Shown: positions 3,793 to 63,738, counted from the stretch's first letter. The stretch is 64,000 nucleotides of DNA from an uncultured Actinomycetes bacterium (GCA_903920435.1 CAIXMB010000038.1:13563-77562), one strand, 5' to 3'. Notes: generated by a model from the letters alone, not told the origin. A program made the numbers and translations.

Positions 3793-5598
3793 GTGAGACA
3801 CGTGAGGTTTGCCGCCGTTGCCGCCGTCGCTGCGGCGGCCCTGATGCTGTCCGGGTGCGTCAGCTACCAGTCGGAAGTCGTCAAGGGCTCCACGGTGTCC
3901 GTCGGGTGGGACCAGTCGTTCTTCTCCTACAACGCCGCGACGGGCTACGGCGCGAACACGGCTAACAGCAACATCGTCTACGCCACGAACTCGGGGTTCA
4001 ACTACTACAACAACGTGCCCGAGCTCGTGAAAGACGAGTCGTTCGGCACCTACACGAAGCTCTCCGACGACCCGCTCATCGTGCAGTACACGATCGCCGA
4101 CGGGGTCACCTGGTCCGACGGCGCGCCCGTCGACGCCGCAGATCTGCTGCTCAACTGGGCGGCACTCTCGGGCGCTCTCAACGATCCCGACTTCGACAAG
4201 TCCCGGTACGTCGACCCCGACACGGGTCAGTTCACGAGCGACTACCCGAGCGATGTCGTCTACTTCGACTCGGGGGCGGATGCCGCCCATCCCCGCGGCC
4301 TGGGCCTGGTGAGCCAGCTGCCCGTCATCAGTGACGACCTCAAGTCGATCACCATGCGCTACGACGAGCCCTTCGCCGACTGGGAGCTCGCCTTCACCTC
4401 GGCGGGCCTTCCGGCGCACGTGATCGGCAAGAACGCGCTCGGCCTGAAAGACGACCAGCAGGCCAAGGACGCCGTCATCGCCGCGATCAAGACCGGCGAC
4501 ACGGCCGCGCTCGCGAAGGTCTCCGCGTTCTGGAACACCGGGTTCAACCTCGACGGCATGCCGAGCGACCCGGGCCTGCTCGTGGGCGACGGGCCGTACG
4601 TGGTGAGCGACTTCGTCGCGGGGGAGTACGTCACCCTCACCGCCAACCCCGCCTACGTCGGCGCACGGATGCCCAGCATCGAGACGATCGTCGTGCGGGT
4701 CATCCCCGATCCGCTCGCGGCGGTGCAGGCGCTGTACAACGGGTCGGTGCAGGTCATCACGCCGCAGGCGACGGAGGACGTGGCCACGGCGCTCAGGGCA
4801 ACGGACAAGACCGTCGTGAGTACCGCGAGCGGTTCGTACGAGCACCTCAACCTGCAGTTCGACGAGTCCAAGAACGGCGTGTTCTCCGACCAGCGCGTGC
4901 GCGAGGCGTTCCTCAAGACCGTGCCCCGCGCCGACATCGTGTCTGACCTCGTCGAGGCGCTGCAGGAGGACGCGACCGTGCGCGACTCCCAGGTCTTCAT
5001 GCCCGGCTCCGACGACTACGACGCGTCGGTGGCCGACAACGGTTCGGCCGACTACGCCGAGGTCGACATCGAGGGCGCGAAGGCGCTGCTGGCCGAGGCC
5101 GGGGTCGTGAACCCGCAGGTGTGCATCCTGTACGCGCCGACCAACCAGCGCCGGGTGAGCGAGTTCATGCTCATCCAGAAGTCCGCGGCGCTCGCGGGCT
5201 TCACGGTCACCGATTGCTCGTCGGCCGACTGGCGGGAGCAGCTGGGCGCGCCGGGTGCGTACGACGCCGCGCTGTACGGCTGGCTGCCCACGAATGTCGG
5301 GGTGAGCGCGACGATCGAGGCGTTCTCGTCCACGGGCCGCAACAATCTGAACCACTACTCGAACGAGAAGGTCGACGCCCTGCTCGCGCAGCTGGGCACG
5401 ACGTTCGACGCCACGAAGCGGGCCAACATCGAGAAGCAGGTCGATGCCCTGCTCTGGGCGGATGCCTACGGACTGCCGTTGTTCCAGTACCCGAGCCTGT
5501 TCGCCTACGACCAGGACCGCATCGCCGGCGTCTCCACATCCGTGCTCGCGCCCACGATCTTCTGGAATGTCTGGGACTGGAAAACCGTTACAGAGTAG
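3793..5598 (+). CDS. ABC family-5 substrate-binding lipoprotein
   Basis: Lipobox LSGC; YTIADGVTWSDGAPVDAAD; DQRVREAF; likely GTG start 3793 (TAGGGT 7 nt upstream). Confidence 0.88.
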   Translation: MRHVRFAAVAAVAAAALMLSGCVSYQSEVVKGSTVSVGWDQSFFSYNAATGYGANTANSNIVYATNSGFNYYNNVPELVKDESFGTYTKLSDDPLIVQYTIADGVTWSDGAPVDAADLLLNWAALSGALNDPDFDKSRYVDPDTGQFTSDYPSDVVYFDSGADAAHPRGLGLVSQLPVISDDLKSITMRYDEPFADWELAFTSAGLPAHVIGKNALGLKDDQQAKDAVIAAIKTGDTAALAKVSAFWNTGFNLDGMPSDPGLLVGDGPYVVSDFVAGEYVTLTANPAYVGARMPSIETIVVRVIPDPLAAVQALYNGSVQVITPQATEDVATALRATDKTVVSTASGSYEHLNLQFDESKNGVFSDQRVREAFLKTVPRADIVSDLVEALQEDATVRDSQVFMPGSDDYDASVADNGSADYAEVDIEGAKALLAEAGVVNPQVCILYAPTNQRRVSEFMLIQKSAALAGFTVTDCSSADWREQLGAPGAYDAALYGWLPTNVGVSATIEAFSSTGRNNLNHYSNEKVDALLAQLGTTFDATKRANIEKQVDALLWADAYGLPLFQYPSLFAYDQDRIAGVSTSVLAPTIFWNVWDWKTVTE

Positions 5599-5722
5599 GC
5601 GCTCTCGCGCTAGGCAGTAGACTGAAGGTGCAGGTCACCAGAGACGCGACCCTGCGCCGAGACTTTCTCTCCCAGCGCCGCTTCCGATGCGCTCACTTCC
5701 CTTCAGTAAAAGGAAATCCTCC

Positions 5723-7630
5723 ATGGCTATCGCCACACGCTCCGACCTGCGCAACGTCGCAATCGTCGCCCACGTCGACCACGGCAAGACCACCCTCGTC
5801 GACGCCATGCTCCGCCAGACCAACTCGTTCGCCGAGCACGCGCACCTCGAAGAGCGCGCGATGGACTCGAACGACCTCGAGCGCGAGAAGGGCATCACGA
5901 TCCTCGCCAAGAACACGGCGATCTCGTACAAGGGCGTGCACGCCACCGACGGCCCCATCACCATCAACGTCATCGACACCCCCGGCCACGCCGACTTCGG
6001 CGGCGAGGTCGAGCGCGGCCTCTCCATGGTCGACGGCGTCGTGCTCCTCGTCGACGCGAGCGAGGGCCCGCTGCCCCAGACGCGCTTCGTGCTGCGCAAG
6101 GCCCTCGAGGCCAAGCTGCCCGTCGTGCTGCTCGTCAACAAGACCGACCGGCCGGATGCGCGCATCGACGAGGTCGTGACCGAGAGCCAGGACCTGCTCC
6201 TCGGTCTCGCGAGCGACATGCACGACGACTTCCCCGACCTCGACCTCGACGCCGTGCTCGACGTTCCCGTCGTGTACGCCTCGGGCCGCAACGGCGCCGC
6301 CAGCTGGAACAAGCCCGCCAACGGCGAGCTGCCCGACAATGACGACCTCGAGCCGCTGTTCGACGCGATCATCAAGCACATCCCGGCGCCGACCTACGAC
6401 GACGAGGCCCCGCTGCAGGCCCACGTCACCAACCTCGACGCGTCGCCGTTCCTCGGCCGCCTGGCCCTGCTGCGCGTGTTCAACGGCACGATCAAGAAGG
6501 GCCAGACCGTGGCCTGGGTGAAGTGGGATGGCAGCGTGCACAACGTGCGCGTCACCGAGCTGCTCATCACCAAGGCCCTCGACCGCTTCCCGGCCGAGTC
6601 CGCTGGCCCCGGTGACATCGTCGCCGTCGCCGGCTTCGAGGACATCACCATCGGTGAGACCCTCGCCGACCCCGACGACGTGCGCCCGCTGCCGACCATC
6701 ACGGTCGACGACCCCGCCATCTCGATGACCATCGGCACGAACACGAGCCCGCTCATCGGCAAGGTGAAGGGCCACAAGCTCACCGCGCGCATGGTCAAGG
6801 ACCGTCTCGACCGCGAGCTCGTCGGAAACATCTCGATCAAGCTCGTCGACATCGGCCGCCCCGACGCCTGGGAGGTGCAGGGCCGCGGCGAGCTCGCGCT
6901 GGCGATCCTCGTCGAGCAGATGCGCCGCGAGGGCTACGAGCTCACCGTCGGCAAGCCGCAGGTGGTCACCAAGCACATCGACGGCAAGCTCAACGAGCCG
7001 TTCGAGCACCTCACCATCGACGCGCCCGAGGAGCACCTCGGCGCCATCACGCAGCTCATGGCGGCCCGCAAGGGTCGCATGGAGACCATGACGAACCACG
7101 GCACCGGCTGGGTGCGCATGGAGTTCATCGTGCCGTCGCGCGGCCTCATCGGCTTCCGCACCGAGTTCCTCACCATCACGCGCGGCACCGGCATCGCGAA
7201 CGCCATCTCGCACGGCTACGAGCCGTGGGCCGGTGCCATCGAGACCCGCACGAACGGCTCGATCGTCGCCGACCGCGCGGGTGTCGCCACGCCGTTCGCC
7301 ATGACCGCCCTGCAGGAGCGCATGTCGTTCTTCGTCGAGCCCACGCAGGAGGTCTACGAGGGCATGGTCGTGGGCGAGAACTCGCGCGCCGACGACATGG
7401 ACGTGAACATCACCAAGGAGAAGCAGCTCACCAACATGCGCCAGAGCACGTCCGACGTGTTCGAGCGCATGACCCCGTCGCGCAAGCTCACCCTCGAGGA
7501 GTGCCTCGAGTTCGCCCGCGAGGACGAGTGCGTCGAGGTGACGCCCGAGGTCATCCGCATCCGCAAGGTCGAGCTCGACTCGAACGCCCGCGCCCGCGCC
7601 TACTCGCAGCGCAAGAAGCAGAACGCATAG
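5723..7630 (+). CDS. typA: Translational GTPase TypA/BipA
   Basis: RNVAIVAHVDHGKTTLVD, DTPGHADFGGEVER, NKTD, GRGEL; SD AGGA upstream of ATG. Confidence 0.97.
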   Translation: MAIATRSDLRNVAIVAHVDHGKTTLVDAMLRQTNSFAEHAHLEERAMDSNDLEREKGITILAKNTAISYKGVHATDGPITINVIDTPGHADFGGEVERGLSMVDGVVLLVDASEGPLPQTRFVLRKALEAKLPVVLLVNKTDRPDARIDEVVTESQDLLLGLASDMHDDFPDLDLDAVLDVPVVYASGRNGAASWNKPANGELPDNDDLEPLFDAIIKHIPAPTYDDEAPLQAHVTNLDASPFLGRLALLRVFNGTIKKGQTVAWVKWDGSVHNVRVTELLITKALDRFPAESAGPGDIVAVAGFEDITIGETLADPDDVRPLPTITVDDPAISMTIGTNTSPLIGKVKGHKLTARMVKDRLDRELVGNISIKLVDIGRPDAWEVQGRGELALAILVEQMRREGYELTVGKPQVVTKHIDGKLNEPFEHLTIDAPEEHLGAITQLMAARKGRMETMTNHGTGWVRMEFIVPSRGLIGFRTEFLTITRGTGIANAISHGYEPWAGAIETRTNGSIVADRAGVATPFAMTALQERMSFFVEPTQEVYEGMVVGENSRADDMDVNITKEKQLTNMRQSTSDVFERMTPSRKLTLEECLEFAREDECVEVTPEVIRIRKVELDSNARARAYSQRKKQNA

Positions 7631-63152: not shown

Positions 63153-63162
63153 GCGCCCGGCA

Positions 63163-63738
63163 ATGCGCGCAGCACTGGTGCTCGGCATCGTGGCGCTCAT
63201 CGCGGCACCGCTTGCCGGATGCAGCGCTGCCGCGCCGAGTTCACCGCAGGAAGGCCCGGGGGCCGCACCGGCCGGCAGGTTCACCGGTCCCTGGGCCGAC
63301 CTCTTCGAGAGCACGTACGCGCAGACCACCTCCGACGACGAGCTGCGCGCCCTCGAGGATGGCGAGATCACCGCAGAGGAGTACGCGTACTTCCAGGGCC
63401 GCATCGTCGAGTGCCTCGCGGGCCTCGGCATCGACGGCCACTTCAACCCCGACGGGTCGCTCGACTACTCGAACGCGAAAGACGTCAGCCAGGAGGCGAT
63501 CCGCGACTGCAACCTCGACAACGGCATCCGCATCCTGACCCTCCATGACGCGATCGTGCGCAACCCCACCCATCGGGACGAGACCGACATCATGCTCGAG
63601 TGCCTCCAGCGCGAAGGGGTGGTGGGTGCCGGCTACACGCGCGCCGACCTCGAGAACGGGGTCGATCTCGATGCGCTCGGCGACGACCCCGCGTTCGCCG
63701 GATGCGCGGCCGACCCGCTCGGGTACGGGGTCGACTGA
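63163..63738 (+). CDS. Lipoprotein of unknown function
   Basis: Lipobox LAGC; four further Cys (VECL, RDCN, LECL, AGCA); 10 nt after bacteriocin stop. Confidence 0.85.
   Translation: MRAALVLGIVALIAAPLAGCSAAAPSSPQEGPGAAPAGRFTGPWADLFESTYAQTTSDDELRALEDGEITAEEYAYFQGRIVECLAGLGIDGHFNPDGSLDYSNAKDVSQEAIRDCNLDNGIRILTLHDAIVRNPTHRDETDIMLECLQREGVVGAGYTRADLENGVDLDALGDDPAFAGCAADPLGYGVD

Follow-up and report, generated by a model that had tools for sequence, protein, structure and literature searches.

MCGGATGCC, an evolutionarily maintained genomic word of Microbacteriaceae with strand-aware spacing and a possible Chi-like reading

Background

Several hyper-abundant signal words have been described in bacterial genomes, including the DNA uptake sequences (DUS) of Neisseriaceae and uptake signal sequences (USS) of Pasteurellaceae, the Chi sites of RecBCD and AddAB, and the highly iterated palindrome HIP1 of cyanobacteria. 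The current study concerns a word of this kind, the octamer CGGATGCC (reverse complement GGCATCCG), in a 64-kb stretch of DNA (C38:13563-77562; hereafter the window) from the 3.16-Mb draft genome of an uncultured actinobacterium (204 contigs, 69.2% G+C). The nearest named relatives of the typA gene in the window belong to a Rhodoglobus sp. metagenome-assembled genome (97% amino-acid identity) and to Salinibacterium sp. G-O1 (95%), and the organism is therefore a member of the family Microbacteriaceae. The word belongs with the DUS/USS, HIP1 and Chi group, and a strand-aware spacing rule sets it apart within that group. In searches of a literature library, neither the word nor motifs of this kind in Microbacteriaceae were found described.

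Like CGGATGCC, DUS and USS are short, non-palindromic words that occur approximately once per kb, are equally frequent on both strands, and are found in genes as well as in spacers. They likewise override codon preference, skew peptide composition, form dialects with a common core within a family, and occur in hairpins in spacers. The word described here differs in that it occurs in a Gram-positive phylum, its redundancy is orientation-specific, and spacers are not preferred over genes.

Chi sites share with the word an asymmetric sequence of 8-9 nt, over-representation and taxon specificity; in addition, a translocating enzyme reads them on a single strand and in a single orientation, in keeping with the same-strand redundancy described below. 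Microbacteriaceae have an AddAB-like two-nuclease enzyme, AdnAB. The differences are that the word has no leading-strand polarity, that its enrichment and saturation are much higher, that RecBCD is absent, and that AdnAB has no known Chi and retains an intact second ATPase site. The FtsK orienting polar sequences (KOPS) and SpoIIIE recognition sequences (SRS), as well as the TraB recognition sequences (TRS) of clt in Streptomyces, are also asymmetric 8-mers read by a translocase in an orientation-dependent manner; however, KOPS and SRS show strong polarity towards dif, and TRS form clusters on plasmids instead of recurring once per kb along the chromosome.

HIP1 (GCGATCGC) resembles the word as a lineage-wide, hyper-abundant octamer whose sites are conserved above background and which has lineage variants. 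HIP1 is palindromic, whereas CGGATGCC is not its own reverse complement and a palindromic form (ATCCGGAT) was seen only in the genome G190; a periodicity of 10-90 kb has been reported for HIP1. HIP1 also contains known methylation sites with cognate methyltransferases, whereas none that fits CGGATGCC was found among the enzymes compared. The original prediction, a reading of the window made from its sequence, had likened the word to HIP1 and uptake sequences and contrasted it with the strand-polarised Chi and KOPS. That likeness is well chosen, and the contrast holds as far as polarity is concerned.

Abundance and definition of the word

An exact search of the window identified 45 copies of CGGATGCC, divided almost evenly between the + strand (22) and the - strand (23), compared to 6.1±2.6 (maximum 12) in 100 dinucleotide-preserving shuffles. 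The original prediction had counted about 43 copies by eye (about 20 and 23 in the two orientations) against about five from a mononucleotide model; the excess is real, and every coordinate it listed is a true copy. Across the whole genome there are 1,938 copies (975 and 963 on the two strands), or one per 1.63 kb. CGGATGCC heads the ranking of over-represented octamers under Markov models of orders 1-3 (~6-fold, z ~90), and the octamers ranked just below it overlap it. A maximal-order Markov ranking masks the word, since overlapping 7-mers soak up its signal, and lower orders and codon shuffles were therefore used.

Single-base variants of the word are far scarcer, with 20-570 copies each in the genome, and the base immediately 5' of the genomic copies is A in 45% and C in 39%. 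The full word is therefore a 9-mer, MCGGATGCC, that is, (A/C)CGGATGCC.

A feature of the DNA rather than of the encoded proteins

Within 2,535 genes delimited by a simple codon-statistics caller, 1,528 copies were found, 726 in the sense and 802 in the antisense orientation, and transcription polarity was rejected on these counts. The main frames were xCG-GAT-GCC (617 copies), G-GCA-TCC-G (425) and GGC-ATC-CGx (261), so the original prediction was right that copies lie inside genes in both orientations and often use GCA-TCC (Ala-Ser) or GAT-GCC (Asp-Ala). Shuffling synonymous codons within genes gave an expectation of 301±12 copies, approximately 5-fold below the observed number, and shuffling codon order left 222±12; the enrichment thus persists against codon-preserving nulls. 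Of the 5,312 sites at which the protein sequence permits the word, the 1,528 copies compare to 291 expected from codon usage. By filling approximately one third of protein-tolerated positions, the word is among the strongest sequence-level forces in these genomes.

The spelling of individual tripeptides is equally distorted. Thr-Asp-Ala (n = 603) is written ACG-GAT-GCC in 53% of cases, compared to 2.7% expected from codon usage, and Pro-Asp-Ala is spelled with the word in 40%, while the corresponding figures are 10% for Ala-Asp-Ala and 6% for Ser-Asp-Ala. The bias towards A or C at the base preceding the octamer therefore acts at the DNA level. The force of the word also extends to the choice of amino acids, as indicated by the imbalance between the tripeptides TDA (603) and ADT (256) and between RMP (104) and PMR (49), with control pairs balanced.

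In strict spacers, short intervals between called genes that sum to 84 kb, 28 copies were found compared to 4.3-5.1 expected, while the reversed control word occurred four times. Density is lower in spacers than in coding DNA (0.33 versus 0.60 per kb), and the fold-enrichment is equal in the two; several of the spacer copies sit within terminator-like hairpins. With equal enrichment in coding DNA and spacers, occurrence in both gene orientations, and survival of synonymous shuffles, MCGGATGCC is a DNA-level feature, neither a codon or peptide effect nor a product of chance, as the original prediction had proposed in describing a signal overlaid on coding sequence.

The word uses the rare codons GAT, GCA and CAT. 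Its density falls from 0.67 to 0.31 per kb where genes are most strongly codon-biased, and is also reduced in low-GC genes. Two genes of the window that had been singled out as free of exact copies, typA (5687-7627) and a UPF0182 gene (56624-59545), are indeed so, and in the case of typA this may be because word density halves under the strongest codon bias. The longest word-free stretches of the genome were considered as possible prophages, an idea that was rejected since most of them encode ordinary metabolic genes; only those on C156, C193 and C48 have a foreign look.

Conservation of word sites

Conservation was first assessed at 14 window sites in relatives at 75-83% identity, with random 8-mers as the control. 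This test showed no excess, with four of the 14 sites conserved compared to 36% of random 8-mers. However, random 8-mers are an inappropriate control because amino-acid constraint dominates them, and the test was replaced by an alignment of 174 kb of coding sequence to G008, the closest available genome (84% nucleotide identity; identity of 0.64 at four-fold sites). At sites where the word is still possible in both genomes, it is retained in G008 in 54 of 69 cases (78%), while it is present in G008 at 21 of 157 sites (13%) where it is absent here (odds ratio 23). The expectation for retention from synonymous sites is approximately 26% (0.64 cubed). Individual codons behave in the same way: GAT is conserved at 27 of 34 positions inside the word (79%) but at 155 of 358 outside it (43%; p = 5e-5), and GCA at 19 of 31 compared to 95 of 344 (p = 3e-4). 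Approximately 30% of sites were lost through amino-acid change, and the positions of sites turn over between genera, with few window sites in common with relatives at 75% identity. Word sites are maintained by evolution well above the synonymous background, which is the outcome that a functional reading of the word had called for in the original prediction.

Polarity and same-strand spacing

No orientation bias of the word was detected per contig (chi2 36.8 on 71 degrees of freedom, even under-dispersed), nor did orientation follow GC skew. Strand counts of the word in the closed genome G116 were 80:66 in the region 0.3-0.5 Mb and 95:84 in the region 3.2-3.4 Mb, with no flip between replichores, while the control word CGACGACG flipped from 59:97 to 81:45 between the same regions. 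Replication polarity was rejected on both tests, and the strong skew switching at ori and dif that characterises KOPS and the architecture imparting sequences (AIMS) is not a property of the word.

Local spacing gives a different picture. Adjacent copies in the genome were more often in opposite (1,015) than in the same orientation (738). Same-orientation pairs closer than 750 bp numbered 246 compared to 438 expected, and those closer than 100 bp numbered 13 compared to 59, while opposite-orientation pairs, whether convergent or divergent, matched expectation. The same-orientation fraction of 0.338 is the lowest by far among 126 equally frequent octamers (median 0.546), and the next three lowest values belong to overlapping variants of CGGATGCC. 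The possible sites themselves are unbiased, with a same-orientation fraction of 0.506, and a protein-level cause of the avoidance was accordingly rejected. The absence of strand bias reported in the original prediction thus holds globally, per contig and per replichore, but not locally, where same-orientation copies avoid one another.

The occupancy of possible sites shows how the effect decays with distance. When the nearest copy lay within 100 bp, occupancy was 5% if that copy had the same orientation, compared to a codon-usage baseline of 5.5%, and 29% if it had the opposite orientation. The corresponding values were 18% and 30% at 100-300 bp, 23% and 31% at 300-750 bp, 34% and 30% at 750-1,500 bp, and 34% and 26% beyond 1,500 bp. 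Gaps between copies on the same strand were more even than random (coefficient of variation 0.876 versus 0.990±0.024 in simulations), while gaps with both strands pooled were random-like (0.984). The asymmetry was replicated in G116, with 68 same-orientation and 133 opposite-orientation pairs (p = 5e-6), in pooled 22-kb loci of other family members (30 and 54), and in the pooled dialect words of other genomes (75 and 126).

Same-orientation copies therefore interfere with one another within approximately 750 bp, and opposite-orientation copies do not. This pattern is indirect evidence for orientation-dependent reading of the signal, and the combination of redundancy limited to one orientation, lack of polarity and strong maintenance suggests that it acts on each strand, or in each direction, separately. 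A single copy would then cover its surroundings, and the two orientations would meet separate needs. As a source of information, redundancy confined to one orientation is novel, since it tells how a motif is read before its reader is known, and it could be extended to other iterated words.

Distribution and dialects in Microbacteriaceae

Enrichment across genomes was measured as the ratio of the word to its reversed control word. All 24 genomes of the same genus were enriched 6- to 12-fold, while 16 other families of the order showed only ~1- to 3.6-fold. Among 151 genomes from 101 genera of Microbacteriaceae, the ratio ranged from 0.4 to ~35, with enrichment in most and approximately 60 genomes above 6-fold by hand count. 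The densest genome, G106, carries 4,042 copies in 3.9 Mb.

The form of the word varies among these genomes. Many genera use CGGATGCC(G) or GGATGCC, with G116 favouring CGGATGCCG and G106 the looser GGATGCC. Two genomes of the genus g58, G172 and G081, have MGGAGGCG(C) in place of CGGATGCC, while G099 carries GCGGATCG and G190 carries both TCCGGATC and the palindrome ATCCGGAT. These words persist against synonymous shuffles, with 80 copies compared to 19 expected for AGGAGGCG, 65 compared to 21 for GGAGGCGC, 81 compared to 27 for GCGGATCG, and 207 compared to 25 for CGGATGCCG. In a family-wide scan, clear enrichment of AGGAGGCG was confined to g58; G172 contains 2,982 copies compared to 402 of the control, split 1,490/1,492 between strands, and the window's own genome contains 349 compared to 253. 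The words are lineage-specific dialects.

The CGGATC-type words are weaker and, in G099, biased with respect to transcription, and are thus perhaps not fully equivalent to the others. In that genome (L081-L100, C1:1-400000), GCGGATC is 69% antisense and GTGGATC 67% sense, and the strands of the contig are unequal (62:99 and 66:35, respectively), unlike those of CGGATGCC in the window's genome. In G190 (L121-L125, C1:1-100000), the palindrome ATCCGGAT, in which two inverted copies of the CGGATC-type word overlap and which resembles HIP1, occurs 22 times compared to 0.2 expected, and TCCGGATC occurs 26 times compared to 0.4. The family-wide dialects, the 9-mer form and the same-strand interference are all absent from the original prediction.

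Interpretation of the word

Of the explanations considered, the one placed first, and only tentatively, is that MCGGATGCC is a strand-read signal with Chi-like logic and that AdnAB is its candidate reader, a possible account that falls short of a probable one. The benefit of an extra copy rises with same-strand distance, which suggests that the cost lies in a machine's travel to an oriented word, as in the logic of Chi. RecC was absent from all 21 genomes searched, and RecBCD was rejected as the reader for that reason. AdnAB is the sole end-resection enzyme in Microbacteriaceae and is encoded in the window, by an adnA-like gene (40925-44083, + strand; UvrD-type motor and PD-(D/E)XK nuclease) as the candidate reader and an adnB-like gene (44079-47198, + strand; lead motor and nuclease) as its candidate partner. 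It is because no other end-resection enzyme is present that AdnAB is the prime candidate and that the Chi-like reading is ranked first. AdnA was present in all 10 genomes tested and is fast-evolving, at 35-63% identity. According to the literature, AdnAB has no known Chi, and the Chi-scanning domains of RecC and AddB have their counterpart in AdnA (PMC5314763).

Under the Chi-like reading, a strand-tracking machine would recognise MCGGATGCC in one orientation only. Copies would be maintained on each strand at intervals of ~1-3 kb, and another copy only a few hundred bases further along that strand would bring no gain. A helicase-nuclease, or another machine that handles single-stranded DNA, would meet the word on the tracked strand of linear or broken DNA and would then switch from degrading to preserving or recombining it. 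DNA of the word-bearing lineage would consequently be repaired or recombined more readily than word-free DNA, and selection or a recombination-linked drive would write the word into every tolerant position, including rare codons and amino-acid choices. We infer three elements of this scheme, namely the strand tracking by the reader, its identity as AdnAB, and the output in protection or recombination.

Several observations weigh against this reading. Every known Chi is polarised to the leading strand, which is a defining property (PMC8022716), and the word is unpolarised. Species within one genus can differ several-fold in enrichment, so that a core enzyme would have to change quickly, and the densest genome, G106, shows only weak same-strand interference. 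AdnAB is regarded as Chi-independent on the grounds that AdnA has an intact ATPase site. The AdnA encoded in the window likewise has an intact Walker A motif and, in VVVDDLQE, a motif II that agrees with the LLVDDAQH of M. smegmatis AdnA. Since the M. smegmatis protein shares the VDD-Q motif II, additional erosion of the AdnA ATPase was rejected as an indication of Chi scanning. In addition, enrichment of 6- to 35-fold and saturation of approximately one third are far above the values known for Chi sites and more like those of uptake sequences or HIP1. Finally, the analysis yielded no direct link between the word and a protein.

The second explanation, rather doubtful but better than the remaining three, is that the word serves DNA uptake or transfer in the manner of DUS and USS. 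A competence or transfer machine would favour word-bearing DNA, and recurrent uptake and recombination among members of the lineage, a molecular drive, would fill the genome with the word, with a separate dialect in each lineage. A density of one copy per 1-1.6 kb on both strands without polarity, an enrichment strong enough to override codon bias and shift peptide content, dialects within one family, and spacer copies in terminator-like hairpins are all expected of such a signal. The machinery is also available. The window's genome has an intact comEA-comEC-holA operon, ComEC is present and intact in 21 of 21 genomes, and a pair of PilB-type (full-length T2SSE, E = 1e-133) and PilT-type ATPases is encoded outside the window at C115:6406-8930, besides Tad-type ATPases that are distinct from this type IV pilus system. 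Natural transformation occurs in Actinomycetota, in Micrococcus luteus (PMC4322843 and other papers). An uptake signal also fits better than a classical Chi with the lack of polarity, the very high enrichment and the intact AdnA ATPase. The PilB/PilT pair is present in seven of 10 family genomes, with the PilB type missing from G106, G099 and G190; the PilB-type ATPase was rejected as a correlate of the word since G106 is the densest genome, and this absence counts against an uptake signal. The orientation rule also counts against it. Known uptake receptors bind duplex DNA and would need one copy in either orientation, while here only same-orientation copies are redundant, so that recognition on single-stranded DNA or some other directional step must be invoked. 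Furthermore, we know of no sequence-specific DNA uptake in any Gram-positive bacterium, and the density of the word in spacers does not exceed that in coding DNA, unlike in Neisseria, where uptake sequences are denser in spacers than in genes. The analysis also yielded no candidate receptor.

An improbable third explanation is that the word is a methylation-linked strand mark that distinguishes old from new strands or self from foreign DNA, for instance to set the direction of nicking in repair, such that both orientations are needed nearby. Asymmetric, lineage-varying 6-9-mers are typical of type IIS, IIG and III methyltransferases, GGATG and GGATC, the cores of the words, are established type IIS sites, and marking of one strand would produce orientation-specific redundancy over ~1 kb, the distance over which Dam/MutH works. 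A suitable enzyme might be the orphan beta-class N6/N4 DNA methyltransferase at C122:11857-12708 (- strand, 284 aa, DPPF ... FGGSGTTG, CcrM-like according to NCBIfam), which lies outside the window in a housekeeping context, between genes for a NagD-like phosphatase and a TrmH-like protein and without a neighbouring nuclease. Its orthologues, 64-81% identical, are present in approximately 139 of 151 Microbacteriaceae genomes, including genomes of 0.9 Mb. None of the 12 genomes that lack the enzyme has a CGGATGCC ratio above 6, a correlation that is confounded by phylogeny. However, an enzyme this similar across genomes with different words cannot set the dialect. Two further N6_N4-type DNA methyltransferases (SPPY and SPPF) are encoded with a Cys-rich open reading frame of 335 aa on a low-GC island (57-58%; C156:1-5000) that contains no copy of the word. 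The pair possibly serves one strand each of an asymmetric site, and the 411-aa island enzyme has homologues in only three of the 151 genomes. Of three sets of candidates, one of them a possible enzyme on C52, the comparison covered the orphan enzyme and the C156 island enzymes, and neither of these two sets contained a methyltransferase whose distribution follows the word. A methyltransferase was therefore rejected as the driver, given that the orphan enzyme is present whatever the dialect and the island enzymes are too rare, and the methylation link that the original prediction drew from FokI- and SfaNI-type sites in the word gained no support from phyletic distribution. In addition, targets of restriction-modification are normally avoided rather than enriched, and Actinobacteria are not known to have MutS/MutL/MutH.

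It is still less likely that the word is the binding site of a nucleoid-associated or chromosome-structuring protein. Hyper-abundance, conserved sites and the lack of a tie to the direction of expression agree with such a role, for which HIP1 is the closest precedent, with a structural role proposed (PMC5861425). However, an architectural protein that binds duplex DNA leaves interference between same-orientation copies alone unaccounted for, overall spacing is random-like (coefficient of variation 0.98), and such quick change of a word between genera would be unusual for a core nucleoid protein. Least plausible of all is a functionless by-product of context-dependent bias in mutation or repair, which would agree with the turnover of positions between genera (few shared at 75% identity) and the lower density under the strongest codon selection but which would require an unprecedented bias specific to nine bases and predicts neither the suppression up to 750 bp on the same strand with none from the opposite strand nor the 78% retention against ~26% expected. 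Of the four mechanisms that the original prediction had listed without ranking, uptake and recombination signals are thus retained, a nucleoid-protein site is disfavoured by the orientation-dependent reading, and methylation is unsupported.

Considered together, the strand-read words of Microbacteriaceae (MCGGATGCC, AGGAGGCG and the CGGATC-type words) could be 'self' words representing either the first Chi-type signals for AdnAB or the first Gram-positive uptake or import signals, a proposition that we regard as a serious one, if somewhat short of an even chance. If the Chi branch is true, the lack of polarity would reflect service to two-ended breaks or incoming DNA; if the uptake branch is true, recognition would occur on single-stranded DNA. 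In either case, a new recognition system would be shaping codon use and protein sequence across an actinobacterial family. The word offers a handle on two questions, that of Chi for AdnAB-type enzymes and that of sequence-specific uptake beyond Gram-negative bacteria. The word and its dialects could also help to mark self versus foreign DNA in Microbacteriaceae, and, should they act on DNA that enters the cell, they could improve genetic tools for the family, for instance through transforming DNA built to carry the word.

Copies in the window and minor observations

The exact copies on the + strand of the window lie at 1255-1262, 4277-4284, 4666-4673, 5459-5466, 9133-9140, 12257-12264, 13792-13799, 16362-16369, 16452-16459, 22594-22601, 25667-25674, 27946-27953, 28746-28753, 29235-29242, 32949-32956, 37240-37247, 40945-40952, 50082-50089, 51025-51032, 53231-53238, 54284-54291 and 56075-56082. 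Those on the - strand, which read GGCATCCG on the + strand, lie at 7988-7995, 9473-9480, 12575-12582, 15717-15724, 16588-16595, 19923-19930, 21042-21049, 23154-23161, 28045-28052, 31012-31019, 33688-33695, 36365-36372, 38218-38225, 41965-41972, 43969-43976, 44947-44954, 46649-46656, 50026-50033, 51186-51193, 53586-53593, 56371-56378, 60574-60581 and 63523-63530. Comparison with relatives included the copies at 12575, which is kept in the loci L001 and L007, at 15717, and at 13792, which lies in a conserved Thr-Asp-Ala that relatives spell ACC-GAC-GCG.

Thirteen window pairs closer than 750 bp are in opposite and three in the same orientation. The + strand copies at 16362 and 16452, only 90 bp apart, form a rare same-orientation pair and an exception to the avoidance, while the copies at 50026 and 50082 are inverted partners at 56 bp. 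A back-to-back pair reported in the original prediction at 53580-53592 is present as GGATGC-G-GCATCC, although only its right arm (53586-53593) is an exact octamer and the left arm is a near-copy.

The AdnA-like protein encoded at 40925-44083 has no Cys after its probable true start, and its only two Cys are in the N-terminal extension of the longest open reading frame. To judge from its sequence, the nuclease domain and Walker A motif are intact and the four-Cys iron-sulfur cluster seems to be lacking.

A second set of octamers, unrelated to CGGATGCC, is also in excess in the genome. TATCGAAA/TTTCGATA occurs in 118 copies, where different models predict 2-37, and GTTGAGTA/CTACTCAA in approximately 120, where 16-23 are expected. 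These octamers may be pieces of a dispersed repeat or regulatory site.

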